Below the pieces are notes generated by a model. That model was given only the letters and a program-made list of their open reading frames with translations, was not told where the DNA came from and did not search any database. Made by a program: the position numbers and the translations under genes. A stretch of 64,000 bases of DNA from the NCBI GenBank assembly GCA_965285935.1, contig OZ260662.1, positions 70,866,001-70,930,000 of the forward strand, given 5' to 3'. Positions within the stretch are counted from its first letter, which is position 1, and each line of letters begins with the position of its first letter. Of this stretch, positions 31,586 through 63,747 are shown one piece after another. Source of the DNA: Ophelia neglecta (lineage: Eukaryota).

Positions 31586-31727
31586 CTGTGGTTAGGTGTT
31601 CACAAAGCTCGACGGACAAATCGCTGATTTCAACATCATCTGTTCCATCTCGTCTGATGAGTATCTCCAAGTCACTGCCAACACTGCTCGTGCTTCTATC
31701 TATCGTGTCAGGGTTAGACACGGTTTC
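31586..31727 (-). CDS. Type I module exon B, copy 1 (ETVSNPDT...VEISDLSVELCEHLTT)
   Basis: 142 nt, phase 0-1, open in all three copies. Confidence 0.85.
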
Positions 31728-31849
31728 CTATGGATGACAATGGCACATGAACACGATGCAAGCAGATCCTTCGATTAATTGCTCAAGAAATTAGACATTT
31801 AAATTCATCATCACAATAATGATGTGGACAAGTAGTCAGAAAAAGTTAC

Positions 31850-32130
31850 CCATGGGTTTTCTTCCGATCCAATTCTTATTCTGACTTCAGTAGCACCAGA
31901 AACCGTGAAAGTGTATCCTACAATTTGGTATGGTCCAGGCGGTGAGACAATCTTCAGCAACACACTAACCGTGTCATCTGTGCTGGGTACCGTGTAAGAA
32001 CCACCTGGACTACCATCCAGGGCGGAGCTAGCTTCGTCGGTGATTTCTCCATCCGGGGAACTACCATAAACGACAACCTCAAGATTGGGGGTGTCAAAAT
32101 TAATGACGGTGCTCTCCAAACAGGGCGTCA
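31850..32130 (-). CDS. Type I module exon A, copy 1 (VTPCLESTVINFD...GSEENPW)
   Basis: 281 nt, phase 1-0; ttttccag acceptor, gtaact donor. Confidence 0.85.
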
Positions 32131-32239
32131 CTGGAAAAAAAAGACGGTTTTCATTATCAATTGGGCCTAGTTTGCTTTATAATTACCATATTGTGTAAAT
32201 ATTACTACTGCTTCTTCTGTTATTACTGCTATTGCTCCT

Positions 32240-32262
32240 GCTACTACTACTACTACTACTAT

Positions 32263-32318
<56 letters not shown>

Positions 32319-32325
32319 ATACTAC
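32240..32325. repeat. (CTA)n microsatellite, intronic
   Basis: long cta run, much shorter in the sister cassette near 36060. Confidence 0.9.
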
Positions 32326-32548
32326 TTAATATTTAAGAATTCCATATACATGCCTCATTTTAAATCAAATTAATGAGTTTCAAGAAACAAAGTACTGTAC
32401 AAGTACTCAGTCATAGTTTAAGCCAAGATTATCTCAAACATGGTTTATAATGTTTATTCTAACAATGTAAGCAAAAAGACTACTAAGCAAATATTGGTTT
32501 TAAATAAGTTGATCGTAAAAACTATCAAAGAATAACAGGAATACGCAC

Positions 32549-32572
32549 CTGTGGTCAATTCTGTTGTGGTTG
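32549..32572 (-). CDS. 24-nt microexon (ATTTELTT)
   Basis: tttatttcag acceptor, gtgcgt donor; phase 1-1; present in three cassettes. Confidence 0.75.
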
Positions 32573-33574
32573 CTGAAATAAAAAAATAAACAAATCATTA
32601 CTTGGTGTACTGAGGCACGCCCATGGCCATGCAAGGTTATTCATAATGTCTGGCAGAATGTCTCCAATGAAATTAACATTCTTGTACATTTATCATGATA
32701 ACGTATAACCGAATAAAAAAGGGCTTATACCGAATTTGTTTGTAGAATTTAAAACGCGGAAACTTTTTGACCCACAACATTTTGTCCGCAAAACACAATT
32801 CTAGCGCCTCAGACGTCTGACTACAAGTATTGATATTTCTTGCTGTGACCTAGGTCTCCAGGACAAATCGTCCCGCTACATTCCATCCGCACGACTTCTA
32901 AGGAGACTGTAGGAAACTGTAGTAATATTTGGCATCACAGCTTCGGAGCAATTAAAATGCCCACTTGAATAGACAATGTATGCATATTTGGAGATCCCTT
33001 GTGAGGCATTGGTATTTAAGGGTCCCCCCTTCATGGGGTCCTTTGAGCCAAAGACATTCGCTTCCCGGGTTTGTCCCTGAACAATTTCATTCCCCTTATT
33101 TCTTCCTTATTTTTCATGCATTCTAGATATACATTATTGGGCATACTAACGCCTTGACGGGTTTAATCCTTTGAAAGGGTGTTATACTAAATAATGCACA
33201 AAATGTATAATTATGATATGTTCTTAGAGCCAATAAAAAAATAACAAACAGTTACAGCAAATCTGTTCCACCTTAGCTCGGCCTTTTTTTCACGTAATGA
33301 TAAAAAATAGATTTCCAATTTAAATGTAGAATACCAACACCATCTGTTGACCTAAATGGTTAACACCTTCCATTAACAAATGTGGAAATATTTTCTAAAC
33401 ACTTCCGCGCGTTGTTTGCTTATAAAAGGGCATTATATTATAACCTTACTTTCAGAGGTTGCAAAATAGTCATCCATGGCTCTTTTAAATAACTTGTCTA
33501 CCATCCTTGGTGTAACTTATTCTTGTGAGACTTACTGTAAAGGCACGGTTTTTAAACAAGATATCGATACTTAC

Positions 33575-33763
33575 CACTGACAGTTGACACTGTCGGGCTG
33601 GGCGTTGTAGTGGGGGCTATAGTAGTTGAAGGCGCCAAACTTGGCGTAGGGGTTTGTGATGTGGTTGGTGCTGTTGTAGGCGCAATGGTAGGCGCTGTCG
33701 TTGGTGCTGTTGTCTGTATAGTTGTTGGTGGTACAGTTGTAAGTGGTTTTGTTGTCGTGGAAG
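33575..33763 (-). CDS. PTS (Thr/Pro-rich) exon, type I cassette
   Basis: 189 nt, phase 1-1; ASTTTKPLTTVPPTT...PTVSTVS. Confidence 0.85.
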
Positions 33764-34472
33764 CTGTGGTATGGAAAATGCAAATCCCAATGCATGTTCA
33801 GACTATTAAAGCTTGACTGTTTAGGCTGGAATACAAATATCGAGTACCTTCCAGAACACTTTTCAATTGGAGATAAAAGTTTTCCAAAAGATGTTCCGCT
33901 TTTTCTTGGGACAATCTGCAGTCCGTAAGGTCAAAGTGTTTGTTTACCCTTGAACAAATTCATGATCGGTGACCCGGGATACTGTTAGTATCGTTAGTAC
34001 CTAGGTATTGGCAACCGATGATTCAGTGACTCGTTGACACCCAAATTCGGACGGCGTTTCGAGCCGATTGCATTGTTCTGGTTGGAAAACAGGCCAAAGT
34101 TAATTGATTTGCACATTATTGGCGAGGCCTATTGTGACAGCTTATCTGAATTAACTTGGCATAGAAAGTCAACGAGTGCTCATGTTTGGCACCATTGTTT
34201 AACACTAGTTCTTCTGACTGTGTACCTAGTAGACCAGTTGGACATTGAAGGGTGCTGTACTTTCCACACATTCAACCTTTATACTTGCATCGTGATTGGA
34301 CGACAGTCCAGGAGTGAGACTTAATATAAAAGCTCGTGACATGGCGACCATAAGGACGAAGCGAGGAACAGCGACTAAAAAACTGTGGCTAAATGGTAAG
34401 TTTACAGTAAAAAGCCGTGGGTCAAGTTTTCAGTAAAGTCGAAGCAAACATAATTATTTAACGTTGTCTTAC

Positions 34473-34505
34473 CTGGTGGGGTGGCAGTGGAGCTAAGTGG
34501 GGTGC
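34473..34505 (-). CDS. 33-nt microexon (GTPLSSTATPP)
   Basis: ttttttcag acceptor, gtaaga donor; phase 1-1. Confidence 0.75.
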
Positions 34506-34827
34506 CTGAAAAAAGAGATCATATCTATAAGTGTAAATATCACAGGGAGAGATGAAAATAACAATTGGGTGTGTTTTATATGTACAGCTGTTTCATCAAG
34601 GCATTGATTTAATAAAGTTCCTTGTGTAATTCGCAAAGCGTGTAAACCAACTGATCTAATGTGGCCTTTCTGTCGGCGCCCTCTAGATTTCTACAGGGAC
34701 AAAAGGACTTATTTAACCCACACTTAAACCGTTCGTGTATAAAGGACTGATCTTATTCATATGCTGCATGAACAAACATACTAATGCGGACACTTATACT
34801 AACCCTAACTACCTTCAAAGTTATATA

Positions 34828-35005
34828 CAGTGAAACCTGTAAATTAAGATTACCCAAGGGACTGGAAAATACTGGTCTGATTAAGAAGGTGGTCTGTTTT
34901 GACGGGTCATTTAACGTTATGAGTGTGCAGGATGGTCTTTATATTTGTGGTCTGAATATAGAGGTGGTCTGAATATAGAGGTGGTCTTTAAGGCAGGTTT
35001 TACTG
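34828..35005. mobile_element. MITE in cassette intron
   Basis: TIR CAGTGAAACCTG...CAGGTTTTACTG (one mismatch), TA on both sides. Confidence 0.8.
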
Positions 35006-35408
35006 TAGTTAATTCAAGTCATACACGTGGATTTCTTGAAAACAAAACACGCCCATTGAATAAAGAATAAGGGATTAGTTAATACTACAAGTAGTGTAGC
35101 TTATAAGTTTTAACCCAAAGGCTAGAGCAAAAAAAACACAGTCTTCCAACATGCATATTGTTACTTCGGCCTCCAGCGTTTATAAATATGAGTACCGCAA
35201 TGAACAACTTTTACGCCAACCGAAACGTGTACGGCTTCATTGTATACCGATGAGCAAAAAACAATGCATTGCACTTATACAATCATCCTCACTGATCCGT
35301 GGCGCTCGATCTCGAGGGTGCTTATGTGCAGAGCTACCAGATAAAGCCCACAAAGAATTCAGGATTAAATCATTTTGATCACAAACAACGCTTGACACTT
35401 GACAGTAC

Positions 35409-35550
35409 CTGTGGTGACGTGCTCACAAAGTTCGACGGATAAATCGCTGATTTCAACATCATCTGTTCCATCTCGTCTGATGAGTATCTCCAAGTCACTG
35501 CCAACACTGCTCGTGCTTCTGACTTTCGTGTCAGGGTTAGACACGGTTTC
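35409..35550 (-). CDS. Type I module exon B, copy 2
   Basis: 142 nt, open, same splice positions. Confidence 0.85.
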
Positions 35551-35672
35551 CTATGGATGACAATGGCACATGAACACGATGCAAGCAGATCCTTCGATTA
35601 ATTGCTCAAGAAATTAGACATTTAAATTCATCATCACAATAATGACGTGGACAAGTAGACAGAAAAAGTTAC

Positions 35673-35953
35673 CCATGGGCTTTCCTCCGATCCAATTCTG
35701 ATCTTGACTTGAGCAGCTCCAGAAACCGTGAAAGTGTATCCTACAATTTGGTATGGTCCAGGCGGTGAGACAATCTTCAGCAACACACTAACCGTGTCAT
35801 CTGTGCTGGGTACCGTGTAAGAACCACCTGGACTACCATCCAGGGCGGAGCTAGCTTCGTCGGTGATTTCTCCATCCGGGGAACTACCATAAACGACAAC
35901 CTCAAGATTGGGGGTGTCAAAATTAATGACGGTGCTCTCCAAACAGGGCGTCA
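35673..35953 (-). CDS. Type I module exon A, copy 2
   Basis: 281 nt, open. Confidence 0.85.
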
Positions 35954-36310
35954 CTGGAAAAAAAGACGGTTTTCATTATCAATTGGGCCTAGTTTGCTTT
36001 ATAATTACCATATTGTGTAACTAGTACTACTGCTTCTTCTGTTATTACTGCTATTTCTCCTGCTACTACTACTGCTACTAATACTACTTAATATTTAAGA
36101 ATTCCTTATACATGCCTCATTTTAAATCCAATTAATGAGATTCAAGAAACAAAGTACTGTACAAGTACTCAGTCATAGTTTAAGCCAAGATTATCTCAAA
36201 CATGGTTTATAATGTTTATTCTAACAATGTAAGCAAAAAGACTACTAAGCAAATATTGGTTTTAAATAAGTTGATCGTAAAAACTATCAAAGAATAACAG
36301 GAATACGCAC

Positions 36311-36334
36311 CTGTGGTCAATTCTGTTGTGGTTG
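36311..36334 (-). CDS. 24-nt microexon (ATTTELTT), copy 2
   Basis: identical to 32549-32572. Confidence 0.75.
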
Positions 36335-36885
36335 CTGAAATAAAAAAATATACAAATCATTACTTGGTGTACTGAGGCACGCCCATGGCCATGCAAGGTT
36401 ATTCATAATGTCTGGCAGAATGTCTCCAATGAAATTAACATTCTTGTACATTTAACATGATTACATATAACCGAATTAAAAAGGTTTTATACCGAATTGT
36501 TTTTGTAGAATTTAAAACGCGGAAACTTTTTGACCCACAACATATTGTCCGCAAAACAATTCTAGCGCCTCAGACGTCTGACTACAAGTATTGATATTTC
36601 TTGCTGTGACCTAGGTCTCCAGGACAAATCGTCCCGCTACATTCCATCCGCACGACTTCTAAGGAGACTGTAGGAAACTGTAGTAATATTTGGCATCACA
36701 GCTTCGGAGCAATTAAAATGCCCACTTGAATATACAATGTATGCGTATTTGGAGATCCCTTGCGAGGCATTGGTATTTAAGGGTCCCCCCTTCATGGGGT
36801 CCTTTGAGCCAAAGACATTCGCTTCCCGGGTTTGTCCCTGAACAATTTCATTCCCCTTATTTCTTCCTAATTTTTCATGCATTCT

Positions 36886-37490
36886 AGATATACATTATTG
36901 GGCATACTAACGCCTTGACGGGTTTAATCCTTTGAAAGGGTGTTATACTAAAAAATGCACAAAATGTATAATTATGATATGTTCTTAGAGCCAATAAAAT
37001 AATAACAAACAGTTACAGCAAATCTGTTCCACCTTAGCTCGGCCTTTTTGTAACGTAATGATACAAAATATATTTCCAATTTAAATGTAAAATACCAACA
37101 CCATCTGTTGACCTAAATGGTTAACACCTTCCATTAACAAATGTGGAAATATTCTCTAAACACTTCCGCGCGTTGTTTGCTTATAAAAGATATACATTAT
37201 TGGGCATACTAACGCCTTGACGGGTTTAATCCTTTGAAAGGGTGTTATACTAAAAAATGCACAAATGTATAATTATGATATGTTCTTAGAGCCAATAAAA
37301 TAATAACAAACAGTTACAGCAAATCTGTTCCACCTTAGCTCGGCCTTTTTTTCACGTAATGATAAAAAATAGATTTCCAATTTAAATGTAAAATACCAAC
37401 ACGATCTGTTGACCTGAATGGTTAACACCTTCCATTAACAAATGTGGAAATATTTTCTAAACACTTCCGCGCGCTGTTTGCTTATAAAAG
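36886..37490. repeat. Intronic ~302-bp direct tandem duplication
   Basis: agatatacattattgggcatactaacg starts at 36886 and 37188; single copy in the sister cassette (~33125). Confidence 0.9.
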
Positions 37491-37636
37491 GGCATTATAT
37501 TATAACCTTACTTTCAGAGGTTGCAAAATAGTCACCCATGGCTCTTTTAAATAACTTGCCTACCATCCTTGGTGTAACTTATTCTTGTGAGACTTACTGT
37601 AAAGGCATGGTTTTTAAACAAGATATCGATACTCAC

Positions 37637-37825
37637 CACTGACAGTTGACACTGTCGGGCTGGGCGTTGTAGTGGGGGCTATAGTAGTTGAAGGCGCCAA
37701 AGTTGGCGTAGGGGTTTGTGATGTGGTTGGTGCTGTTGTAGGCGCTATGGTAGGCGCTGTCGTTGGTGCTGTTGTCTGTATAGTTGTTGGTGGTACAGTT
37801 GTAAGTGGTTTTGTTGTCGTGGAAG
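37637..37825 (-). CDS. PTS exon, type I cassette, copy 2
   Basis: 189 nt, phase 1-1. Confidence 0.85.
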
Positions 37826-38534
37826 CTGTGGTATGGAAAATGCAAATCCCAATGCATGTTCAGACTATTAAAGCTTGACTGTTTAGGCTGGAATACAAAT
37901 ATCGAGTACCTTCCAGAACACTTTTCAATTGGAGATAAAAGTTTTCCAAAAGATGTTCCGCTCTTTTTTGGGACAATCTGCAGTCCGTAAGGTCAAAGTG
38001 TTTGTTTACCCTTGAACAAATTCATGATCGGTGACCTGGGATACTGTTAGTGTCGTTAGTACCTAGGTATTGGCAACCGATGATTTAGTGACTCGTTGAT
38101 ACCCAAATTCGGACGGCGTTTCGAGCCGATTGCATTGTTCTGGTTGGAAAACAGGCCAAAGTTAATTGATTTGCACATTATTGGCGAGGCCTATTGTGAC
38201 AGCTTATCTGAATTAACTTGGCATAGAAAGTCAACGAGTGCTCATGTTTGGCACCATTGTTTAACACTAGTTCTTCTGACTGTGTACCTAGTAGACCAGT
38301 GGGACATTGAAGGGTGCTGTACTTTCCACACATTCAACCTTTATACTTGCATCGTGATTGGACGACAGTCCAGGAGTGAGACTTAATATAAAAGCTCGTG
38401 ACATGGCGACCATAAGGACGAAGCGAGGAACAGCGACTAAAAAACTGTGGCTAAATGGTAAGTTTACAGTAAAAAGCCGTGGGGCAAGTTTTCAGTAAAG
38501 TCGAAGCAAACATAATTATTTAACGTTGTCTTAC

Positions 38535-38567
38535 CTGGTGGGGTGGCAGTGGAGCTAAGTGGGGTGC
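38535..38567 (-). CDS. 33-nt microexon, copy 2
   Basis: identical to 34473-34505. Confidence 0.75.
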
Positions 38568-38889
38568 CTGAAAAAAGAGATCATATCTATAAGTGTAAAA
38601 ATCACACGGAGAGATGAAAATAACAATTGGGTGTGTTTTATATATACAGCTGTTTCATCAAGGCATTGATATAATAAAGTTCCTTGTGTAATTCGCAAAG
38701 CGTGTAAACCAACTGATCTAATGTGGCCTTTCTGTCGGCGCCCTCTAGATTTCTACAGGGACAAAAGGACTTATTTAACCCACACTTAAACCGTTCGTGT
38801 ATAAAGGACTGATCTTATTCATATGCTGCATGAACAAACATACTAATATGGACACTTATACTAACCCTAACTACCTTCAAAGTTATATA

Positions 38890-39067
38890 CAGTGAAACCT
38901 GTAAATTGAGATTACCCAAGGGACTGTAAAATATTGGTCTGATTAAGAAGGTGGTCTGTTTAGACGGGTCATTTAACGTTATGAGTGTGCAGGATGGTCT
39001 TTATATTTGTGGTCTAAATATAGAGGTGGTCTGAATATAGAGGTGGTCTTTAAGGCAGGTTTTACTG
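38890..39067. mobile_element. MITE in cassette intron, co-duplicated copy
   Basis: same element and same flanks as 34828-35005. Confidence 0.8.
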
Positions 39068-39469
39068 TAGTTAATTCAAGTCATACAGGTGGATTTCTTG
39101 AAAACAAAACACGCCCATTGAATAAAGAATAAGGGATTAGTTAATACTACAAGTAGTGTAGCTTATAAGTTTTAACCCAAAGGCTAGAGCAAAAACACAC
39201 AGTCTTCCAACATGCATATTTTAACTTCGGCCTCCAGCGTTTATAAATATGAGTACCGCAATGAACAACTTTTACGCCAACCGAAACGTGTACGGCTTCA
39301 TTGTATACCGATGAGCATAAAAACAATGCATGCACTTATACAATCATCCTCACTGATCCGTGGCGCTCGATCTCGAGGGTGCTTATGTGCAGAGCTACCA
39401 GATAAAGCCCACAAAGAATTCAGGATTAAATTATTTTGATCACAAACAACGCTTGACGCTTGACAGTAC

Positions 39470-39611
39470 CTGTGGTGACGTGCTCACAAAGTTCGACGGA
39501 TAAATCGCTGATTTCAACATCATCTATTCCATCTCGTCTGATGAGTATCTCCAAGTCACTGCCAACACTGCTCGTGCTTCTAACTATCGTGTCAGGGTTA
39601 GACACGGTTTC
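39470..39611 (-). CDS. Type I module exon B, copy 3
   Basis: 142 nt, open. Confidence 0.85.
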
Positions 39612-39737
39612 CTATGGATGTCAATTGCACATGAACACGATGCAAGCAGATCCTTCGATTAATTGCGCAAGAAATCAGATATTTAAAGTCATTATTATAT
39701 TAATGACGGAAGTGGACAAGTAGACAGAAAAAGTTAC

Positions 39738-40018
39738 CCATGGGCTTTCCTCCGATCCAATTCTGATCTTGACTTGAGTAGCTCCAGAAACCGTGAAAGA
39801 GTATCCTACAATTTGGTATGGTCCAGACGGTGAGACAATCTTCAGCAACACACTAACCGTGTCATCTGTGCTGGGTACCGTGTAAGAACCACCTGGACTA
39901 CCGTCCAGGGCGGAGCTAGCTTCATCGGTGATTTCTCCATCTGGGGAACTACCATAAACGGCAACCTCAAGGTTGGGGGTGTCAAAATTAATGACGGTGC
40001 TCTCCAAACAGGGGGTCA
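39738..40018 (-). CDS. Type I module exon A, copy 3
   Basis: 281 nt, open; differences from copies 1-2 include several synonymous changes. Confidence 0.85.
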
Positions 40019-40515
40019 CTGGTAACAATAGACGGTTTTAATTATCAATTGGGCTTAGTTTGCTTCACAATTATGATAAGATACTAATAGAAGTGATATT
40101 GACATAATACAAAATGCAGAGTATAAATCTAGAATTCTTTCACAATGAAATTAATAATCTTTTATAATAAAAATATCAGGATAAAGAAGATAAGTACATG
40201 GTTTATATAATATCTATGCTATTGTGACATACTTATTATATGCATTCCATATAAAATAAACATTGCATTGTTACTTCAATTGGCACTATTTGGCATTGCA
40301 CGAAGCATCCGTGTACATGCACGATCGAATGCTAAATTCAATGAGATTCACGAAGTATCAAAATTATTGTATTACAAGTGCCCATAGGTGGAATGAAGAT
40401 TACTTCAATAGATGGATAATTGATAAGAATCTTGTATCAAGATAAGCAACTTATAAATTTGGTTCAATATATATAATGATTGTAAAAATGATCGAAGAAT
40501 AACAGCAATACGCAC

Positions 40516-40539
40516 CTGTGGTCATTTCTGCTGTTGTTG
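40516..40539 (-). CDS. 24-nt microexon (ATTAEMTT), diverged copy
   Basis: same splice context as the other 24-nt microexons although the wider intron flanks have diverged. Confidence 0.72.
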
Positions 40540-42539
40540 CTGAAATAAAGAAATGTAAATATCATTACTTGATGTTCTTGGTCACGCTGGTCTCTACACA
40601 TGATTAATCTTTGTGTGAAAAATGTGTTCTTATTATCCAACACCTTTTTATGCTAAAGCTGTGTTAAACAAAACTGTGGTTTAACAATAAAAAATTGAAC
40701 GTCATTCATAAAGCCTGGATAATATTCGCAGAGACGTTGATAAGATCAGCAAGCAACTTTGTGCGTGATAACGTCTCTCTTGATTTCAATAAGGCATTTA
40801 CCATGTGCCCTTACACTGCAAATATCAAGTTCAGGGTATATCGGTATATAATGAAATCTGTGGAAAAAAATGTTCATCATGAATTAAATCATCTTATACT
40901 GATCTTTGCAACTAAGGGCTTCCAATTACGATTATTGTTTTAAAGTCGTTCAGTCAACGGCCTCTGATTATTTTGTTCTGTTCCTGACGTTATTTCTGAA
41001 ATCAGGAAACATTCGCGCGGAGGAACCGGTATCATGAATGTGTATTTGGGTTTTATTTTAATTCGATGCGATACAGAAATAATGAACCACAACGAGTTTG
41101 CATATGAAGATGTTACCATTTCTGAACATCCTCAATAATACTGCAGAACCGAAAAAGTAAAGGCGTCAATGAGCCGAGAAAAAGAGACTGCAATTGTTGT
41201 TGAGTGCAATGAAGGGCAGTGGCAATGTCTGATTTACCCAGTGACAACTAGTAGGAAACACACCTGAAACATATGCAAACATCGCACTAATGTTAGTTAT
41301 TTGGGTATAAAGTCTTTATGAGCAAATTAAAAATCCAAATTGTTACGGTGTACGGAATCATGTCTTCTATTGGAATATACGGTTTTCCAGCAATGTGCCC
41401 GGCGTGCCACACAAGCAATGGAGTCTCCATGCACTTAACATGGAGAAGCTGTAGAGTCTGGTGCTATTGCTCATAATAATGCAGCCATGTGTATTAACTC
41501 TTAACCTGATTGAAAACTGCTTATCAAGGCTTTGCTTTTTGGTTCCAAACTGGTTGCATGATGGAGTCTGCAAGGCGTTAGAATCGAGAACATTGTTATG
41601 TAACAAGCTAGAGAGTACCAGGCCCAGATTTCCTTGAGTCTTATTCACCGATTTTGTAAATGCTGAATCGAGGATGTTTGTACGTAAATCATCGTTTTCG
41701 CATCAGAAACAGGAAAAATGCGACTGGAAAAACAAATCTCCCCAATAACGTTGGGATTTTTCGAGTTGCCTTGTGCCAATGGAACAATATCTGCCGAGAA
41801 GGTAGAATGTTTGAGATTTCGGCGTTATAGTGTGGTCACTTCCAACCTAGCTCTGGTGTACTTTATGTCTATAAAGTCACAAAAAAGCTCAGGTCCACCT
41901 TAAATCTTTGAAGCTCTGTAAGGCCAACATCATCGCTAGACTTACATTCAGTATTTAAGTGAGCACTGAATAATAGAAAATACTAAGTGGAGAGCTACGT
42001 CTTAATTATTTCGGTTTTAAAACAAAGCTTTAACGAGTCAAACACATATGACCAAGAGCAGCTAACACTATATTGTGGCTACATGATTAGTTAATACTCT
42101 CCTTCATACTCCTTTATTCACTATGAACCAATACTTTAGGCCAAAGTTATATAACATATATTAACAATATATGATTATATTCCTAGTCAGCAAATATTGA
42201 TCCTTCCCCATCACTCTCATCACGGCCAAATCATTTTTTCTAGCCTCGATATGTTGATTTTCGTGGAGTAGGCTGTAGTTACTCAAGTTTATCGCATTGT
42301 TTTTATTTGTTGTTGTTCCATATTGTTTTCCTGTCTAGTAACACAAAGTTTATCGCTTTGTTTTTCTTGTATTTCTCTTGTTCCGTTAACAGGTATTATT
42401 CATTTAATATGCTTCATAACCATCATAAAAATATCTAGGTATTTCGAAATGTTACGTATGCATGTTAATAATTGATATTGTTTGTATTCATTATACATTT
42501 TTTGTAGCCATTTTATGTTTACCACATGCCTCAGTCAAA

Positions 42540-42767
42540 ATAAGTTTCGATTCAACTTATTTAATTATACGGCCTTGGCGGATTTATACCCTTGCAGATT
42601 AAACCGACCGCGTACCTTGTGCCGGCGACAGTGGATAAACGACTTAGATTTAATGCATAGCTCGGTTTATGTCATTGATAAATTGACCATCAGAAATAAG
42701 GTAAAATAGAGCGAATTCACGTTTATGGGGATGTTTTCAGAAAAGTTAATTCATAACATGGTATAAA
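42540..42767 (-). pseudogene. Decayed pseudo-exon: dead copy of module exon A
   Basis: residual PCYELT, EFALF..SDG and TVAGTRYAVGLICKGINPPRPYN*, with stops and frameshifts, ~126 nt downstream of a PTS exon as in live units. Confidence 0.8.
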
Positions 42768-42893: not shown

Positions 42894-43595
42894 CACTAAC
42901 AGTTGACTCTGTCGTTGGTGGTGTAGTTGTGGTTGCAGGCGGTGAAAAAGAAGATGATGCTGTAGTAAGGATAGTTGGGAGGGTCTTGATTGGTAGAGAA
43001 GTGGGTGCTGTAGTTGGATTACCCGTTGTTCCGGTTGGCGGCATAAGCGTTAATGTTGTACTTAGCATAGTTGTGGATGTTGTTGTCGGTGTATACGCGA
43101 TAGTTGTTGCCGGTAGAATAGAAATTTGGTTAGTTGGCACAGTAGGTGGCACAGTGGTTGGTTCTGTGGTCAATGAAGTAGTGTACTCTGTAGTAGGCAT
43201 GGTTGTCGGAATAGTTGTGGGTGCAGTAGTGGGACCAGTTGTAGGAGCTGTTGTCTGCACAGTTGTGGGTGCTGTAGTTTGAGCAGTTATGGGTGTTGTT
43301 GTCGTCACAGTTATTGGTGCTGTAGTTGGTGTAGCAGTAGGTGATGTTGTTGGAGCAGTTGTGGGGGCTGTTGTGGGCACAGTTGAAGGTGCTGTAGTCG
43401 ATAAAGTTGTTGGTGCTGTAGTTGGAGCAGTTGTTGGTGCTGTAGTCGGTGTAGAAGTAGGTGATGGTGTTGGACCAGTTGTGGGTGCGGTTGTGGGCAC
43501 AGTTGTGGGTCTTGTTGTCTGTGCAGCTGTGGTAACTGTGGTTGGAGCAGTTGTGGATGCTGTTGTCGGCACAGTTGTCTGTGATGTAGTTGGGC
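42894..43595 (-). CDS. Large PTS exon (234 codons, TTAP-rich)
   Basis: 702 nt, phase 1-1; atttcag acceptor, gtcagt donor. Confidence 0.88.
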
Positions 43596-44869: not shown

Positions 44870-45016
44870 CTGGTGTGAAATGTTCGCAAATTTCAACAGA
44901 TAAGTCGTTTATTATGACATCACTTGATCCATTGCGATAGAAAACAAATTCCACTTCGTTGCACTTATACCGTAAAGTTGTATTGTGTCAGTGGCATCAG
45001 GGTTATCAATCGGCTC
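44870..45016 (-). pseudogene. Type II module exon B, edge copy with 7-nt deletion (frameshift and stop)
   Basis: 147 nt versus 154 nt in six sisters; gttgc-acttat versus gttgc-ccgtttt-acttat. Confidence 0.75.
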
Positions 45017-45633
45017 CTATGCAACATGGAAAGCGGCAAGACACCATTACTAATCACCACAACTAGTATTACATACCCAAACATTGTGGTTTGAAGACAA
45101 AATAACGGCCAATAAACAATATCTGAGGAAGGATTCAAATGTTTTCTTTCAACTTGAGTCGAAAACTTAAATTTTAGCCAGAGACATATAACAACAACTG
45201 GCCAAACGAAGAACTTGAATTCCAAAAAAATGATTTCAGGAACAAACCAATCCATTCAAGGCTTAAGCGCCGACTAGGTTATATATGCGTCTAAAAGTAA
45301 AACAAGTTCCGTGCCATATACAATGACCCCAATAGACGAATAAGTCCATAGAATCTGCGCAGTTGGGTTGATTCTTCTAACTATTTATTCAAAGAATAGC
45401 TAGGTGTTAATTCCTTAGGCCTTAATTAAACGTATCTGTTAAGGGTCAAACGCATGATATCAACAGCAGCATAACACTATATTGTGTCTATAGGAAGAGA
45501 TAATGCCCTCCTCTTTCATAAACTAGGATCCTGTCCTGTTTTTGGCCCATTTTCCTCAGATTCCTAAAAATCAGACGCATAATTACATACGAATATTGCT
45601 CCTACTTGAGCGGTCAACAAATATTGCTCCTAC

Positions 45634-45914
45634 CCCATCAGACTCATCACCGCCAAATCTAACTTTGTTTCTCGATGCACCAGTGATGTTGAATGAGTAG
45701 CCTATAAAATTATACGGCCCTGGCGGATTTATCATCTTCAGTAGTAAGCCGACCGTGGTGCTTGTGCCGGGGACAGTGTAAGAGCCACTTGGACTTCCAA
45801 GCCAAGCTGGACTTGCGTCACTCGTAACTTCTCCATCAGGAGAAGTCCCAAATAGAGCGATTTCAGGGTTTCTCGTGTTGAAATCCAACACAGTTGATTC
45901 CAAACAAGGCGTAA
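45634..45914 (-). CDS. Type II module exon A, unit 1
   Basis: 281 nt, phase 1-0; its partner exon B is broken, so it may be skipped. Confidence 0.6.
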
Positions 45915-48770: not shown

Positions 48771-49051
48771 CCCATCAGACTCATCACCGCCAAATCTAAC
48801 TTTGTATCTCGATGCACCAGTGATGTTGAATGAGTAGCCTAAAAAATTATACGGCCCTGGCGGATTTATCATCTTCAGTAGTAAGCCGACCGTGGTGCTT
48901 GTGCCGGGGACAGTGTATGAGCCACTTGGACTTCCAAGCCAAGCTGGACTTGCGTCACTCGTAACTTCTCCATCAGGAGAAGTCCCAAATAGAGCCATTT
49001 CAGGGTTTCTCGTGTTGAAATCAAACACAGTTGATTCCAAACAAAGCGTAA
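48771..49051 (-). CDS. Type II module exon A, unit 2
   Basis: 281 nt; cattctag acceptor, gtagga donor. Confidence 0.82.
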
Positions 49052-51058: not shown

Positions 51059-51212
51059 CTGGTGTGAAATATTCGCAAATTTCAACAGATAAGTCGTTAA
51101 TTATGACATCACTTGATCCATTGCGATAGAAAACAAATTCCACTTCGTTGCCCGTTTTACTTATACCGTAAAGTTGTATTGTGTCAGTGGCATCAGGGTT
51201 ATCAATCGGCTC
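51059..51212 (-). CDS. Type II module exon B, unit 3
   Basis: 154 nt, open. Confidence 0.85.
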
Positions 51213-51904
51213 CTATGCAACATGGAAAGCGGCAAGACACCATTACTTATCACCACAACTAGTATTACATACCCAAATATTGTGGTTTGAAGACAAAATA
51301 ACGGCCAATAAACAATATCTGAGGAAGGATTCAAATGTTTTCTTTCAACTTGAGTCGAAAACTTAAATTTTAGCTAGAGACATATAACAACAACTGGCCA
51401 AACGAAGAACTTGAATTCCAAAAAATGATTTCAGGAACAAACCAATCCATTCAAGGCTTAAGCGCCCACTAGGTTATATATGCGTCTAAAAGTAAAACAA
51501 GTTACGAGCCATTTACAATGACCCCAATAGACGAATAAGTCCATAGAAACTGCACAGTTGGGTTGATTCTTCTGACAATATATTCAAAGAATAGCTAGGT
51601 GTTAATTCGTTAGGCCTTATTACACGTAGCTGTTAAGGGTCGGACGCATGTTATCAACAGCAGCATAACACTATATTGTGTCTATGGGAATAGATAATGC
51701 CCTCCTCTTTCATAAACTAGGATCCTGTCCTGTTTTCGGCCCATTTTCCTCAGATATCCTTTTATTGCTACGAACTTGAAAAGTCAGACGCATAATTACA
51801 TACGAATATTTAATACATGTATATATATGTATATATATATATCTTTTTTCAAGCAGTCAACAAATATTGCTCCTACTTGAGCGGTCAACAAATATTGCTC
51901 CTAC

Positions 51905-52185
51905 CCCATCAGACTCATCACCGCCAAATCTAACTTTGTATCTCGATGCACCAGTGATGTTGAATGAGTAGCCTATAAAATTATACGGCCCTGGCGGATT
52001 TATCATCTTCAGTAGTAAGCCGACCGTGGTGCTTGTGCCGGGGACAGTGTATGAGCCACTTGGACTTCCAAGCCAAGCTGGACTTGCGTCACTCGTAACT
52101 TCTCCATCAGGAGAAGTCCCAAATAGAGCGATTTCAGGGTTTCTCGTGTTGAAATCAAACACAGTTGATTCCAAACAAGGCGTAA
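51905..52185 (-). CDS. Type II module exon A, unit 3
   Basis: 281 nt, open. Confidence 0.85.
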
Positions 52186-54195: not shown

Positions 54196-54349
54196 CTGGT
54201 GTGAAATATTCGCAAATTTCAACAGATAAGTCGTTAATTATGACATCACTTGATCCATTGCGATAGAAAACAAATTCCACTTCGTTGCCCGTTTTACTTA
54301 TACCGTAAAGTTGTATTGTGTCAGTGGCATCAGGGTTATCAATCGGCTC
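54196..54349 (-). CDS. Type II module exon B, unit 4
   Basis: 154 nt, open. Confidence 0.85.
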
Positions 54350-55035
54350 CTATGCAACATGGAAAGCGGCAAGACACCATTACTAATCACCACAACTAGT
54401 ATTACATACCCAAATATTGTGGTTTGAAGACAAAATAACGGCCAATAAACAATATCTGAGGAAGGATTCAAATGTTTTCTTTCAACTTGAGTCGAAAACT
54501 TAAATTTTAGCTAGAGACATATAACAACAACTGGCCAAACGAAGAACTTGAATTCCAAAAAATGATTTCAGGAACAAACCAATCCATTCAAGGCGCCCAC
54601 TAGGTTATATATGCGTCTAAAAGTAAAACAAGTTACGAGCCATTTACAATGACCCCAATAGACGAATAAGTCCATAGAAACTGCACAGTTGGGTTGATTC
54701 TTCTGACAATATATTCAAAGAATAGCTAGGTGTTAATTCGTTAGGCCTTATTACACGTAGCTGTTAAGGGTCGGACGCATGTTATCAACAGCAGCATAAC
54801 ACTATATTGTGTCTATGGGAATAGATAATGCCCTCCTCTTTCATAAACTAGGATCCTGTCCTGTTTTCGGCCCATTTTCCTCAGATATCCTTTTATTGCT
54901 ACGAACTTGAAAAGTCAGACGCATAATTACATACGAATATTTAATACATGTATATATATGTATATATATATATCTTTTTTCAAGCAGTCAACAAATATTG
55001 CTCCTACTTGAGCGGTCAACAAATATTGCTCCTAC

Positions 55036-55316
55036 CCCATCAGACTCATCACCGCCAAATCTAACTTTGTATCTCGATGCACCAGTGATGTTGAATGAGT
55101 AGCCTATAAAATTATACGGCCCTGGCGGATTTATCATCTTCAGTAGTAAGCCGACCGTGGTGCTTGTGCCGGGGACAGTGTATGAGCCACTTGGACTTCC
55201 AAGCCAAGCTGGACTTGCGTCACTCGTAACTTCTCCATCAGGAGAAGTCCCAAATAGAGCGATTTCAGGGTTTCTCGTGTTGAAATCAAACACAGTTGAT
55301 TCCAAACAAGGCGTAA
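55036..55316 (-). CDS. Type II module exon A, unit 4
   Basis: 281 nt, open. Confidence 0.85.
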
Positions 55317-57326: not shown

Positions 57327-57480
57327 CTGGTGTGAAATATTCGCAAATTTCAACAGATAAGTCGTTAATTATGACATCACTTGATCCATTGCGATAGAAA
57401 ACAAATTCCACTTCGTTGCCCGTTTTACTTATACCGTAAAGTTGTATTGTGTCAGTGGCATCAGGGTTATCAATCGGCTC
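57327..57480 (-). CDS. Type II module exon B, unit 5
   Basis: 154 nt, open. Confidence 0.85.
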
Positions 57481-58166
57481 CTATGCAACATGGAAAGCGG
57501 CAAGACACCATTACTAATCACCACAACTAGTATTACATACCCAAACATTGTGGTTTGAAGACAAAATAACGGCCAATAAACAATATCTGAGGAAGGATTC
57601 AAATGTTTTCTTTCAACTTGAGTCGAAAACTTAAATTTTAGCTAGAGACATATAACAACAACTGGCCAAACGAAGAACTTGAATTCCAAAAAATGATTTC
57701 AGGAACAAACCAATCCATTCAAGGCGCCCACTAGGTTATATATGCGTCTAAAAGTAAAACAAGTTACGAGCCATTTACAATGACCCCAATAGACAAATAA
57801 GTCCATAGAAACTGCACAGTTGGGTTGATTCTTCTGACAATATATTCAAAGAATAGCTAGGTGTTAATTCGTTAGGCCTTATTACACGTAGCTGTTAAGG
57901 GTCGGACGCATGTTATCAACAGCAGCATAACACTATATTGTGTCTATGGGAATAGATAATGCCCTCCTCTTTCATAAACTAGGATCCTGTCCTGTTTTCG
58001 GCCCATTTTCCTCAGATATCCTTTTATTGCTACGAACTTGAAAAGTCAGACGCATAATTACATACGAATATTTAATACATGTATATATATGTATATATAT
58101 ATATCTTTTTTCAAGCAGTCAACAAATATTGCTCCTACTTGAGCGGTCAACAAATATTGCTCCTAC

Positions 58167-58447
58167 CCCATCAGACTCATCACCGCCAAATCTAACTTTG
58201 TATCTCGATGCACCAGTGATGTTGAATGAGTAGCCTATAAAATTATACGGCCCTGGCGGATTTATCATCTTCAGTAGTAAGCCGACCGTGGTGCTTGTGC
58301 CGGGGACAGTGTATGAGCCACTTGGACTTCCAAGCCAAGCTGGACTTGCGTCACTCGTAACTTCTCCATCAGGAGAAGTCCCAAATAGAGCGATTTCAGG
58401 GTTTCTCGTGTTGAAATCAAACACAGTTGATTCCAAACAAGGCGTAA
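58167..58447 (-). CDS. Type II module exon A, unit 5
   Basis: 281 nt, open. Confidence 0.85.
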
Positions 58448-58575
58448 CTAGAATGGTGCAAAAAATAATAAGGCAGTGCACTGCAAGCTTCCTAGAAGGC
58501 AAATAGTTATATGCTAGGGGTTTTGCGAGATATATGACAGAAGCACTTTTCCACTAAAGATAATTCGATACGTAC

Positions 58576-59172: not shown

Positions 59173-60457
59173 CTGAAATATTTAACATGTAATCAAGTAT
59201 CGCTTTCATGCCCGCAAATAGAATTCCACGTCCTACCGTTGCAAATTATTAAAGTAGACTTGATCTAATAGCTGTAGTATTTCATGGTGACGTCGGGCTA
59301 GTTTGGCATACCTCGATAGTTACATGTGTGCCCTAGGTCTGATTTATATTACATAGTCCTGAATAACAATGCATATTTTAAAAATAAATGCCTTGTATTC
59401 ATTCAAAGCGCGAGGGAAAACCTCCAAAAAACAAAGTAGAAACCAACGGGTAACACGGACGAATGGAAGAGTTTTTAGAACATATTTTCGGGTAAACCCA
59501 TTGTAAATTCTAGGGGACACGAGACCACTCAAACCAAAAAGCCTTTTAAACTGCTAAAAAGGAAAGTGTTGTGTTTGATTCAGTAACAAACAGTAAACCA
59601 TTTCCAGCTTGAATGGTTCTGATTTGTCCATATGTTCAAAGTTGACAATTACATATTTATCGAAATAGTTTCAAATAATGGAACAAATGTATGATGAATA
59701 TTAACTTATAAGTGGTGTCTTGTTGGACCTTCTGGCAACAGGGTCATGTCAGTCGGCCCCACCTGATTTTACGGAGAGGAGGTGTTGTCTTTTCTCGAAT
59801 TGAAAGTCTTAGCGGATTAAGGGACGTATATCTATATACACAAGTCTTGATTAAGTATTTTTGTGTCCGAATAAAAATCCAATTCGACGTAAGGAAGAGG
59901 AATCTTTTGGCAGGGTTTCTGCCGCTGGACTGCCCTATTCTGAACCATGCTTTAGGTCGCCTTAGTTCGTTTGCGCTCTTGTGTCTGCATTCAACATACT
60001 TTTACAAGTATGGCCTTTAAATTTTTAAATTTAGTCAACTGACAGCAATGACAATAAACAATTATATTACTCGTTCCTATCAACTTTCGTCATTAAGGGA
60101 ATATTAGGAGATAAATGGCATTCAGACTGGCAAGGCAATGATTGACATAAAACACCTGAAATTAGGTTTCGAACTGACATCCTATATGTAGGATGGATCT
60201 GCTGCTGTCCAGAGCTTTTCAAATGGAACCGATTATATTCTCTCTAAATGCATATTATCACAATAGAAACCTAATTTCCTTGTCTTTAGCCTAATCTGAT
60301 ACATATTAACTCGTTTCAAGCTTTGCCTAAATAACCTTAATATAGCGAACTCCTGTTTTCCTTCTCATGCAGAAGCATCTGTTATAATTGGAAATAAACA
60401 TTTTACGTGGTTTAAAATGGAAGACATAAGTCAAAGTTGATTAGAAAAATCTATTAC

Positions 60458-60611
60458 CTGGTGTGAAATATTCGCAAATTTCAACAGATAAGTCGTTAAT
60501 TATGACATCACTTGATCCATTGCGATAGAAAACAAATTCCACTTCGTTGCCCGTTTTACTTATACCGTAAAGTTGTATTGTGTCAGTGGCATCAGGGTTA
60601 TCAATCGGCTC
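60458..60611 (-). CDS. Type II module exon B, unit 6
   Basis: 154 nt, open. Confidence 0.85.
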
Positions 60612-61303
60612 CTATGCAACATGGAAAGCGGCAAGACACCATTACTAATCACCACAACTAGTATTACATACCCAAACATTGTGGTTTGAAGACAAAATAA
60701 CGGCCAATAAACAATATCTGAGGAAGGATTCAAATGTTTTCTTTCAACTTGAGTCGAAAACTTAAATTTTAGCCAGAGACATATAACAACAACTGGCCAA
60801 ACGAAGAACTTGAATTCCAAATAATGATTTCAGGAACAAACCAATCCATTCAAGGCTTAAGCGCCCACTAGGTTATATATGCGTCTTAAAGTAAAACAAG
60901 TTCCGAGCCATTTACAATGACCCCAATAGACGAACAAGTCCATAGAAACAGCACAGTTGGGTTGATTCTTCTGACAATTTATTCAAAGAATAGCTAGGTG
61001 TTAATTCGTTAGGCCTTATTACACGTAGCTGTTAAGGGTCAAACGCATGTTATCAACAGCAGCATAACACTATATTGTGTCTATGGGAATAGATAATGCC
61101 CTCCTCTTTCATAAACTAGGATCCTGTCCTGTTTTCGGCCCATTTTCCTCAGATATCCTTTTATTGCTACGAACTTGAAAAGTCAGACGCATAATTACAT
61201 ACGAATATTTAATACATGTATATATATGTATATATATATATCTTATTACAAGCAGTCAACAAATATTGCTCCTACTTGAGCGGTCAACAAATATTGCTCC
61301 TAC

Positions 61304-61584
61304 CCCATCAGACTCATCACCGCCAAATCTAACTTTGTATCTCGATGCACCAGTGATGTTGAATGAGTAGCCTATAAAATTATACGGCCCTGGCGGATTT
61401 ATCATCTTCAGTAGTAAGCCGACCGTGGTGCTTGTGCCGGGGACAGTGTATGAGCCACTTGGACTTCCAAGCCAAGCTGGACTTGCGTCACTCGTAACTT
61501 CTCCATCAGGAGAAGTCCCAAATAGAGCGATTTCAGGGTTTCTCGTGTTGAAATCAAACACAGTTGATTCCAAACAAGGCGTAA
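61304..61584 (-). CDS. Type II module exon A, unit 6
   Basis: 281 nt, open. Confidence 0.85.
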
Positions 61585-61712
61585 CTAGAATGGTGCAAAA
61601 AATAATAAGGCAGTGCACTGCAAGCTTCCTAGAAGGCAAATAGTTATATGCTAGGGGTTTTGCGAGATATATGGCAGAAGCACATTTCCACTAAAGATAA
61701 TTCGATACGTAC

Positions 61713-62309
61713 CACTAACAGTTGACGACAACGTAGTTTGCGATGTTGAGGGAACAGTAGTTGTAACGGTAGAACTTGCGGTAGTTGTGGGTGCCGTGGT
61801 TGTTAAGGTAGTGGGTGCCGAAGTTGAGGCAGTAGAAGGCGCGGTAGTTGTGATAGTCGTTGGAGCTGTTGTCGGCGAAGTTATGGGTGCTGTTGTCGGA
61901 ATAGTTGTGGGTGCAGTAGTGGGACCAGTTGTAGGAGCTGTTGTCTGCACAGTTGTGGGTGCTGTAGTTTGAGCAGTTGTGGGTGTTGTTGTCGTCACAG
62001 TTATTGGTGCTGTAGTTGGTGTAGCAGTAGATGATGTTGTTGGAGCAGTTGTGGGGGCTGTTGTGGGCACAGTTGAAGGTGCTGTAGTCGATAAAGTTGT
62101 GGGTGCTGTAGTTTGAGCAGTTGTGGGTGCTGTAGTTGGAGCAGTTGTTGGTGCTGTAGTCGGTGTAGAAGTAGGTGATGGTGTTGGACCAGTTGTGGGT
62201 GCGGTTGTGGGCGCAGTTGTGGGGCCTGTTGTCTGTGCAGCTGTGGTAGCTGTGGTTTGAGCAGTTGTGGATGCTGTTGTCGGCACAGTTGTCTGTGATG
62301 TAGTTGGTC
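61713..62309 (-). CDS. PTS exon, type II unit 6
   Basis: 597 nt, open. Confidence 0.88.
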
Positions 62310-63593
62310 CTGAAATATTTAACATGTAATCAAGTATCGCTTTCATGCCCGCAAATAGAATTCCACGTCCTACCGTTGCAAATTATTAAAGTAGACATGA
62401 TCTAATAGCTGTAGTATTTCATGGTGACGTCGGGCTAGTCTGGCATACCTCGATAGTTACATGTGTGCCCTAGGTCTGATTTATATTACATACTCCTGAA
62501 TAACAATGCATATTTTAAAAATAAATGCCTTGTATTCATTCAAAGCGCGAGGGAAAACCTCCAAAAAACAAAGTAGAAACCAACGGGTAACACGGACGAA
62601 TGGAAGAGTTTTTAGAACATATTTTCGGGTAAACCCATTGTAAATTCTAGGGGACACGAGACCACTCAAACCAAAAAGCCTTTTAAACTGCTAAAAAGGA
62701 AAGTGTTGTGTTTGATTCAGTAACAAACAGTAAACCATTTCCAGCTTGAATGGTTCTGATTTGTCCATATGTTCAAAGTTGACAATTACATATTTATCGA
62801 AATAGTTTCAAATAATGGATCAAATGTATGATGAATATTAACTTATAAGTGGTGTCTTGTTGGACCTTCTGGCAACAGGGTCATGTCAGTCGGCCCCACC
62901 TGATTTTACGGAGAGGAGGTGTTGTCTTTTCTCGAATTGAAAGTCTTAGCGGATTAAGGGACGTATATCTATATACACAAGTCTTGATTAAGTATTTTTG
63001 TGTCCGAATAAAAATCCAATTCGACGTAAGGAAGAGGAATCTTTTGGCAGGGTTTCTGCCGCTGGACTGCCCTATTCTGAACCATGCTTTAGGTCGCCTT
63101 AGTTCGTTTGCGCTCTTGTGTCTGCATTCAACATACTTTTACAAGTATGGCCTTTAAATTTTTAAATTTAGTCAACTGACAGCAATGACAATAAACAATT
63201 ATATTACTCGTTCCTATCAACTTTCGTCATTAAGGGAATATTAGGAGATAAATGGCATTCAGACTGGCAAGCAATGACTGACATAAAACACCTGAAATTA
63301 GGTTTCGAACTGACATCCTATATGTAGGATGGATCTGCTGCTGTCCAGAGCTTTTCAAATGGAACCGATTATATTCTCTCTAAATGCATATTATCACAAT
63401 AGAAACCTAATTTCCTTGTCTTTAGCTTAATCTGATACATATAAACTCGTTTCAAGCTTTGCCTAAATAACCTTAATATAGCGAACTCCTGTTTTCCTTC
63501 TCATGCAGAAGCATCTGTTATAATTGGAAATAAACATTTTACGTGGTTTAAAATGGAAGACATAAGTCAAAGTTGATTAGAAAAATCTATTAC

Positions 63594-63747
63594 CTGGTGT
63601 GAAATATTCGCAAATTTCAACAGATAAGTCGTTAATTATGACATCACTTGATCCATTGCGATAGAAAACAAATTCCACTTCGTTGCCCGTTTTACTTATA
63701 CCGTAAAGTTGTATTGTGTCAGTGGCATCAGGGTTATCAATCGGCTC
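63594..63747 (-). CDS. Type II module exon B, unit 7 (rest of unit outside window)
   Basis: 154 nt, open. Confidence 0.85.

Follow-up and report, generated by a model that had tools for sequence, protein, structure and literature searches.

A two-exon module with a predicted discoidin-like fold between PTS blocks in a likely gel-forming mucin gene of Ophelia neglecta: a tentative CysD-like contact point

Introduction

Discoidin or F5/8C domains carry the sequence signatures W..QW.VDL and LRxELxGC. They occur in invertebrate mucins and in hemolectin. In invertebrate mucins, F5_F8 and CysD domains are described as adjoining PTS regions, and the F5/8C domains of lophotrochozoan and arthropod mucins occupy such a place (PMC4948705). 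F5/8C domains have also been found repeatedly in adhesive and mucus proteins of marine origin (PMC10057474). The CysD domain (Mucin2_WxxW) of MUC2 and MUC5, a small disulfide-bonded domain between PTS repeats, has five disulfides and has been shown to form non-covalent dimers (PMC3195396). Among sugar-binding domains with the galactose-binding-like fold, the galactose site of CBM32 is made up of H1392, Y1395, R1423, N1428 and F1483 in CBM32-5 of CpGH89, while CBM32-4 is described as binding sugar without the canonical residues (PMC3313936). F-type lectins share the fucose motif HX24RXDX4(R/K) (PMC5712786).

In this study, we analysed a 64,000-nucleotide stretch of Ophelia neglecta DNA (the window; contig OZ260662.1, positions 70,866,001 to 70,930,000), in which an original prediction had pointed to a two-cysteine module split over two exons and possibly acting as a lectin or a self-association cross-linker. 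We suggest, tentatively and at a little under an even chance, that it is a conserved extracellular domain with a loop-trimmed, discoidin-like jelly roll, which would serve as a periodic, acidic, non-covalent, CysD-like contact point in a likely gel-forming mucin, rather than as a canonical lectin.

Results

Exon structure of the module

The module was encoded on the minus strand by exons A and B, over the span originally given (the leading exon B starts at base 63747 and the final one ends at 31586). Exon A measured 281 nt in all nine copies (six of type II and three of type I), each bounded by an AG acceptor and a GT donor. Exon B measured 154 nt in six of the seven copies of type II and 142 nt in all three of type I; every border of the two exons was AG/GT. 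Exon A was of phase 1-0 and exon B of phase 0-1, making the pair a symmetric cassette. When joined by coordinates, eight of the nine pairs yielded 140 or 144 codons (141 or 145 with the split Val codon) and exactly two cysteines, at positions 3 and 135/139, confirming both the two-exon module and the single cysteine near each end that had been predicted. Each module had one Trp. The predicted sequons of type II were also found, with NIT in all six exons A and NGS in the five intact pairs, and type I had none.

The first type II element within the window was a 154-nt exon B at 63594..63747, the partner exon A of which lay outside the window edge. Five modules followed at 60458..61584 (exon A 61584-61304, exon B 60611-60458), 57327..58447 (58447-58167 and 57480-57327), 54196..55316 (55316-55036 and 54349-54196), 51059..52185 (52185-51905 and 51212-51059) and 47925..49051 (49051-48771 and 48078-47925). 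The sixth, at 44870..45914, was broken in the assembly, with an intact exon A (45914-45634) and a frameshifted exon B (45016-44870). Type I modules were located at 39470..40018 (40018-39738 and 39611-39470), 35409..35953 (35953-35673 and 35550-35409) and 31586..32130 (32130-31850 and 31727-31586). The period of the module was 344 residues in type II and 223 residues in type I.

Host gene

The modules alternated with PTS blocks upstream of a TSP1-TIL-cystine-knot C-terminus, all on the minus strand. The PTS exons consisted of 70-74% P+T+S; the type II exon at 61713..62309 (597 nt, 198 aa) had 74%, and further type II PTS exons were located at 59172-58576, 56041-55445, 52910-52314, 49774-49178 and 46640-46044. 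A divergent PTS exon (42894..43595; 702 nt, encoding 233 aa) lay at the margin of the type II array. Type I units had short Thr/Ser-rich exons within 30905..40539, of 24 nt (40539-40516, 36334-36311 and 32572-32549), 33 nt (38567-38535 and 34505-34473), 189 nt (37825-37637 and 33763-33575) and 87 nt (30991-30905). The C-terminal exons (25453..30538) encoded a VWC-like domain, two TSP1, TIL, VWC-like, TSP1-like and VWC-like domains and a cystine knot, and a stop codon ended exon 25503-25453. The VWC-like domains were called from their cysteine pattern only; the two TSP1, TIL and the cystine knot were called by Pfam, with Cys_knot matching two half-exons at E 5.8e-05 and 7.8e-06. PTS blocks together with a C-terminal cystine knot and VWC, TIL and TSP1 domains are a hallmark of gel-forming mucins and SCO-spondin-like proteins. 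As judged from its 3' part, the 5' part being beyond base 64000, the host is likely a gel-forming, SCO-spondin-type mucin.

Conservation and decay

Type I and type II modules were identical at 71 of 144 positions. Their exons B aligned with a score of 104, where shuffled sequences averaged 22 +/- 4, and as none of 2000 shuffles reached 104, the likeness was beyond chance. Exons A of the two types differed at 55-57 of their 93 third codon positions and at only 17-20 second positions, which indicated that selection acts on the protein. The module was strongly acidic: D+E numbered 19-25 and K+R 6-7 in the window copies, and the corresponding counts for full-module homologues were 22-23 and 6-12. 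Conserved columns fell mostly on predicted strands or on Gly, Ala or Cys, and the charged residues K59, R85, E115, R120 and E137 were shared by all divergent representatives in the comparison.

In this assembly, the final exon B of type II (45016-44870) carried a 7-nt deletion leading to a frameshift and stops. In read contigs from three runs of one sample, the two runs covering this exon gave the intact form at a summed depth of 130-285, which probably represents collapsed majority copies. A decayed type II exon A relic was located at 42516..42767 (minus strand), approximately 72% identical over 157 nt with several indels; a profile scan found no exon B relic beside it. Since two copies have decayed, single copies of the module appear to be dispensable.

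Homologues and profile searches

A HMMER search against 1.84 billion representatives returned seven matches, of which two were retained; P0001-P0004 and P0007 were rejected as 26-67-residue matches to repeat-rich or low-complexity proteins without module-like cysteines. The homologue P0005, which shared 34% identity with exon A of type I, was matched by exon A at E 4e-20 and by exon B at 1e-8 and 5e-6. Because homologues in other assemblies carried the sequence of both exons within one ORF and in exact register, with A ending at alignment column 97 and B starting at column 98, the predicted joining of A to B was supported at the sequence level; a profile-profile comparison supported it at 98.7%. 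The module recurred ca. 12 times along one contig of another organism, and the module-plus-PTS repeat was kept in other lineages as well.

When exon A of type I was searched against longer proteins by word index, a weak method, none of 348 candidates matched. No prokaryotic or viral relative was found by pattern scans of metagenomes, prokaryote genomes and viral contigs, the narrow patterns of which could pass over distant prokaryotic kin, and tblastn found no relative on plasmids. No description of the module was found in titles and abstract starts of the open-access literature.

The module could not be assigned to a named family by sequence, as originally stated. PF00754 and PF22633 had no match at E <= 10 in any of 15 alignment rows, four of which were whole or near-whole homologue modules, and the single exons matched neither model. 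Sequence-profile searches of the PDB gave no significant match; two matches to helicase II at E about 2 were attributed to chance. The best NCBIfam match (E 0.0034, on one of 15 rows) was rejected.

Predicted fold

The fold was predicted for the homologue P0005, rather than for the window's own spliced sequence; exon A modelled alone, with 12 intron-derived codons, reached a pLDDT of 48 and was not used. The AlphaFold model of P0005 was almost all beta (pLDDT 90.0, pTM 0.85), gave 75 Foldseek matches at E <= 0.001, and aligned 112-132 of its 141 residues with galactose-binding-like structures, at Z 10.0-13.1 for all 50 matches listed. This modelling bore out the predicted galactose-binding-like beta-sandwich, and the module is accordingly described here as a predicted jelly roll of that superfamily. 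The best scores were those of IFT25 (Z 13.1-13.4; rmsd 2.2 over 116 residues at Z 13.1), bacterial CBM32/NedA-like domains (Z 12.1-12.5, rmsd 2.5-2.7; 116 residues at rmsd 2.5 for the Z 12.5 match) and DOC-type domains of APC10, HERC2 and BIRC6 (Z 11.9-12.7). IFT25, APC10, HERC2 and BIRC6 are intracellular proteins. Animal F5/8C domains (PF00754; DDR, neuropilin b, factor V/VIII C2) scored 1-2 Z units lower (Z 10.0-11.1 over 122-130 residues), including neuropilin-1 (Z 11.1, rmsd 3.5, 127 residues) and factor V C2 (Z 10.8, rmsd 3.0, 122 residues), and F-type lectin scored Z 10.3. ESM Atlas neighbours were F5/8C and CBM32 clusters at 0.80-0.84, below 0.9 and thus leads only.

Residues 1..139 of the model spanned DDR2 26..188 (2wuh) and residues 2..138 spanned 29..188 (7azb). 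Assuming ungapped ends, Cys3 and Cys136 lay 0-2 residues from DDR2 Cys30 and Cys185, and these range ends lent model-based support to the predicted discoidin-like cysteine pair; a single N-to-C disulfide likely closes the module. The ligand-binding loops that protrude from F5/8C domains are L1-3, L4 and L6. By DSSP, strands 67-77 and 79-86 of the model were separated by a single residue, and strands 113-120 and 126-137 by five. In the model, these short gaps would correspond to DDR2 loops L4 and L6, with the 67-77/79-86 turn in the place of the CBM32 Arg/Asn and of L4, and the predicted beta3-beta4 binding loop was reduced to a Gly-Ala turn. Both type II sequons appear to map to this predicted binding end.

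Sugar-binding motifs

Motifs were examined in 13 sequences (three type I, two type II and eight homologue rows). The A..A.DG motif cited in the original prediction, examined as a candidate sign of the structural Ca2+ site of CBM32, stood in all three type I sequences and in none of the other ten. A relaxed hhDG form of the h2DGx cation motif of F-type lectins, with Leu allowed, was present in the three type I sequences and two homologue rows, and was not found in type II or the P0005 group. From residue 6 up to the last Cys, all 13 sequences were devoid of His, so the canonical CBM32 His/Tyr/Arg/Asn/Phe site was absent, and none had the fucolectin motif at spacings of 24-28. The F5/8C signatures were likewise found in none of the 13.

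Discussion

Like the F5/8C domains of invertebrate mucins, the module adjoins PTS in a mucin-like protein, with the predicted jelly roll and one cysteine per end in common. It differs in being only 6-15% identical, in its smaller size (by ca. 15 residues), in top loops that appear trimmed, in having one domain per PTS block, and in lacking their Pfam match and signatures. The compact, short-looped IFT25 and DOC domains fit better (9-15% identity), a likeness that could be due to the short loops and not to common ancestry. CBM32 alignments mostly began past Cys3. The higher scores of IFT25, CBM32 and DOC domains and the absence of the tested F5/8C signatures speak against F5/8C descent; we infer, rather than observe, that the module descended from F5/8C domains adjoining PTS in invertebrate mucins. 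Its copies would have multiplied through tandem duplication of phase-1-symmetric exon cassettes, accompanied by homogenisation and, at the array edge, by decay.

CysD occupies an equal architectural slot, the module's own disulfide being the likely one described above, although the sequences are unrelated: the module has two cysteines against ten, no WxxW and no Pfam match. Dimerisation, known from CysD, is proposed for the module by analogy only, which makes a CysD-like sticker role plausible. The modules would act as periodic, acidic, non-covalent contact points between PTS blocks, as CysD does in MUC2. The strongly acidic surface disfavours direct self-binding without cations, and cation-assisted lateral contacts between modules would set the mesh size of the gel.

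The trimming of the predicted binding end also suits a different explanation, in which the module is a spacer bead, essentially inert and resistant to proteases. It would be a degenerate discoidin domain, without its former binding loops, retained only for folding, stiffness or spacing of the glycosylated brush, with type II also carrying N-glycans. Conservation concentrated on strands and on Gly, Ala and Cys, sequons that would both lie at the binding end, the loss of copies where the array ends and strong net negative charge are all consistent with such a bead. Retention of the five charged residues argues against it, though these could be structural, as does maintenance of the module-plus-PTS repeat in other lineages, and we consider the bead unlikely, if a serious contender. 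Less probable still is a lectin that uses a non-canonical site, either to cross-link the mucin through its own O-glycans or to bind glycans of microbes; the two types would differ in specificity. CBM32 and F-type lectin were among the close fold matches, the language-model leads included CBM32, the CBM32-4 precedent (PMC3313936) points to sugar binding by other residues, and type I retains a stretch resembling the hhDG cation motif. Against these stand the missing His/Arg/Asn/Phe site and fucose motif, predicted binding-end loops with no conserved aromatic residue, only seven aromatic residues in type I, and a DG motif missing from both type II and P0005. The lectin first suggested was therefore unsupported in its canonical form, the A..A.DG motif being restricted to type I.

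The top fold matches (IFT25, DOC, neuropilin, DDR) are non-lectins, which, with the recurrence of F5/8C domains in marine adhesive and mucus proteins (PMC10057474), would fit a protein- or surface-binding module tethering the mucin to a secreted protein, the matrix or a substrate. No partner is known, the ligand loops of such domains are short in the modelled module, and many near-identical copies suit a polymer-physics role better; we regard this tether as very unlikely. An improbable proposal, rated just behind the lectin, is that the module represents a separate, undescribed animal galactose-binding-like lineage, nearer to compact CBM32, IFT25 and DOC domains than to F5/8C, independently recruited into invertebrate mucins as a CysD replacement. 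It would be a cation-switched, self-associating cross-linker, with copy number and spacing (two families, 344 vs 223 residues) tuning mesh size along one polypeptide. The CysD-like contact point with F5/8C ancestry remained our preferred, tentative reading.

The module goes unrecognised by Pfam models; its novelty is lower than originally implied, since PMC4948705 had described F5/8 domains next to PTS. We regard it as a new form of an established fold, invisible to profiles and probably not a lectin, in a setting already described, and the surprise is moderate unless self-association or an unusual ligand is demonstrated. Profile-based surveys of mucin evolution read the module region as plain PTS and so miss a folded domain with at least nine copies in this one gene and about a dozen on the contig found elsewhere. 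With CysD and recognisable F5/8C, the module brings to three the types of domain that interrupt PTS. It is small, would hold a single disulfide and should be easy to express, so that a CysD-like sticker in invertebrate mucus gels is directly testable.

Host gene and anatomy of the module

The window was found to be intron-rich animal DNA. Its minus strand carries, between base 64000 and approximately 25,450, the 3' part of one large mucin-like gene, in which 45 exons were placed, with AG/GT at every one. The module sits in two tandem arrays of this gene. The type II unit measured 3.13 kb and comprised a 597-nt Pro/Thr/Ser-rich (PTS) exon, exon A, and exon B, while the type I unit measured 3.8-4.1 kb with short PTS exons; module start-to-start spacing was 344 aa (type II) and 223 aa (type I). 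The arrays are followed on the 3' side by a VWC-like stretch, two TSP1 domains, a TIL domain, further VWC/TSP1-like pieces, and a cystine knot, an end that we take to resemble the SCO-spondin C-terminus. SCO-spondins have been described as the closest relatives of invertebrate mucin-like proteins (Lang et al. 2016, PMC4948705), and SCO-spondin-like proteins occur outside chordates (PMC5543218, which does not mention the module domain). The first exon past the arrays (30538-30334, minus strand) has a VWC-type look, a long acidic cysteine-free insertion, and no Pfam match. A ZIP zinc transporter ORF (20064-21248, minus strand; Pfam Zip, E 2e-51) lies downstream of the mucin gene in the same orientation, and a PTPRN/PTPRN2 (IA-2)-like receptor phosphatase exon (6683-6961, plus strand) lies near a minisatellite of about 12 copies of a 67-bp unit (5329-6131).

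The original prediction of a two-exon, two-cysteine module of ~141-145 aa in two families was borne out. Exon A was 281 nt in all nine copies, and exon B was 154 nt in six of seven type II copies and 142 nt in all three type I copies, with intron phases of 1-0 and 0-1, respectively. Eight of nine A+B pairs encoded 141/145 residues with two cysteines, one close to either end. The modules are strongly acidic, and the NIT and NGS sequons described for type II were present. Type I and type II modules were identical at 71 of 144 positions, and their exon B alignment scored above all 2000 shuffles. Between the exon A families, 55-57 of 93 third codon positions differed, far more than the 17-20 differing second positions, indicating that the module protein is under constraint.

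Homologues and predicted fold

With type II exon A as the query, HMMER run without filters returned seven matches, two of which were full-length homologues. A follow-up profile search kept three candidates out of 7999 and three out of 1013; the searches together gave six distinct representatives, all ENA gene calls. Five of these (P0005, P0008, P0009, P0010, and P0011) carried A-like and B-like parts in a single ORF, followed by PTS sequence; the remaining one, P0006, looks like exon A alone reading on into an intron. Exon B, which was absent from the query, matched P0005 in both families (E 1e-8 for type I, 5e-6 for type II), and the joint alignment placed the last column of exon A at 97 and the first of exon B at 98. 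Homology in exact column register thus supports well the predicted joining of the two exons. The P0005, P0008, and P0010 clusters held twelve near-identical module+PTS ORFs lacking the A/B intron, all on ENA contigs of 12,950 nt, suggesting a similar tandem array in another organism. These copies carried a third cysteine five residues ahead of the terminal one, possibly a free thiol.

Pfam searches with single exons or whole homologue modules, and NCBIfam and PDB sequence searches with the module, gave no significant match, in agreement with the earlier statement that the module could not be assigned to a named family. Exon A by itself gave a poor fold prediction. The module of P0005, a homologue of the window's own spliced protein, was modeled by AlphaFold2 with a 15-row alignment as a nearly all-beta structure (pLDDT 90.0, pTM 0.85). 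Compared with 48,161 PDB representatives, its best 50 listed matches spanned Z 10.0-13.1 at 6-15% identity and, judged from titles, nearly all were galactose-binding-like jelly rolls. They included IFT25 (Z 13.1, rmsd 2.2, 116 aligned), CBM32 (Z 12.5, rmsd 2.5, 116 aligned), BIRC6 (Z 12.4), the HERC2 DOC domain (Z 11.9), neuropilin-1 (Z 11.1, rmsd 3.5, 127 aligned), discoidin I (Z 10.9), DDR1, CASPR2, and factor V C2 (Z 10.8), and F-lectin (Z 10.3). Further structure searches with this model agreed, and the proposed galactose-binding-like beta-sandwich therefore holds at the level of the predicted structure.

Whether the module descends from discoidin-type (F5/8C) domains drew evidence in both directions. 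If the alignment ends are free of gaps, the two cysteines of the model fall within 0-2 residues of DDR2 Cys30 and Cys185. Counting back from the alignment ends in the other structures, the terminal cysteine of the model fell on neuropilin-1 424, factor V C2 156, and factor VIII 2326, presumably the terminal cysteines of those domains; this register and the mucin setting favor such descent. The higher Z of the compact IFT25, CBM32, and DOC domains, and the missing sequence signatures, do not favor it.

Array turnover

Type II units (43202-64000) were 97.8-99.8% identical over five units, introns included. Central neighbors were the most alike and identity fell to its minimum at the downstream edge, a pattern in keeping with concerted evolution or a recent expansion. 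In the last type II exon B (45016-44870, minus strand), a 7-nt deletion causes a frameshift. With all 45 exons joined, the frame stopped at codon 2099; without the frameshifted A+B pair, 3349 codons remained open, cystine knot included. Either the pair is skipped, so that the gene reaches the cystine knot, or the 7 nt are missing in one allele or through an error in the assembly. In public contigs of a single sample, where type II units are collapsed, exon B showed only the intact majority form, a result compatible with either a real or a spurious deletion. A decayed type II exon A relic (42767-42516, minus strand), past a divergent PTS exon, is an older module loss where the two arrays meet. 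Together, the deletion and the relic suggested that symmetric cassettes are born and lost at the array edge.

Type I units differed in size through a 301-bp tandem duplication within one intron (36886-37490). The intron preceding type I exon A also carries a CTA/TAG-type microsatellite (36020-36085 and 32241-32326), whose size varies strongly between copies, with approximately 29 units in one.

Sugar binding and possible role

The canonical CBM32 site has been described as His, Tyr, Arg, Asn, and Phe (PMC3313936), and F-type lectin motifs as HX24RXDX4(R/K) and h2DGx (PMC5712786). Across 13 sequences, neither the fucose motif HX24RXDX4(R/K) nor any His lying after residue 6 and before the last Cys was found, and the suggestion of a lectin is not supported in its canonical form. 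The A..A.DG motif, noted earlier as frequent in galactose-binding-like domains, was present in type I only. In the P0005 model, strands 67-77 and 79-86 are one residue apart at a conserved Gly-Ala, a turn that we infer would occupy the position of discoidin loop L4 and the CBM32 Arg/Asn loop; the last two strands are separated by a five-residue loop that lacks aromatic residues. Both sequons of type II mapped beside this turn and this loop, so glycans there would cover the usual binding end. A new sugar site is conceivable, as CBM32-4 was reported to bind sugar while lacking every canonical residue (PMC3313936), and a non-canonical lectin is on balance improbable.

In this gene the module stands where CysD stands in MUC2 and MUC5, as a small and probably disulfide-closed domain that breaks up PTS sequence. 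CysD dimerizes non-covalently, and these dimers have been proposed to determine the pore size of mucus (PMC3195396). By analogy, modules spaced along the PTS mucin may make periodic, probably cation-assisted contacts, and a role as such a contact point is the reading that we tentatively prefer, at somewhat short of an even chance. That the module is an inert spacer seems rather unlikely, yet more probable than a non-canonical lectin, and that it tethers the protein to another protein or surface is more doubtful than any of these.

The module is a real, conserved domain family missed by current profiles, with a predicted fold that is already known, and known in this mucin setting. Interest in it would rise if it were true that the module is an independently recruited, self-associating CysD analogue.
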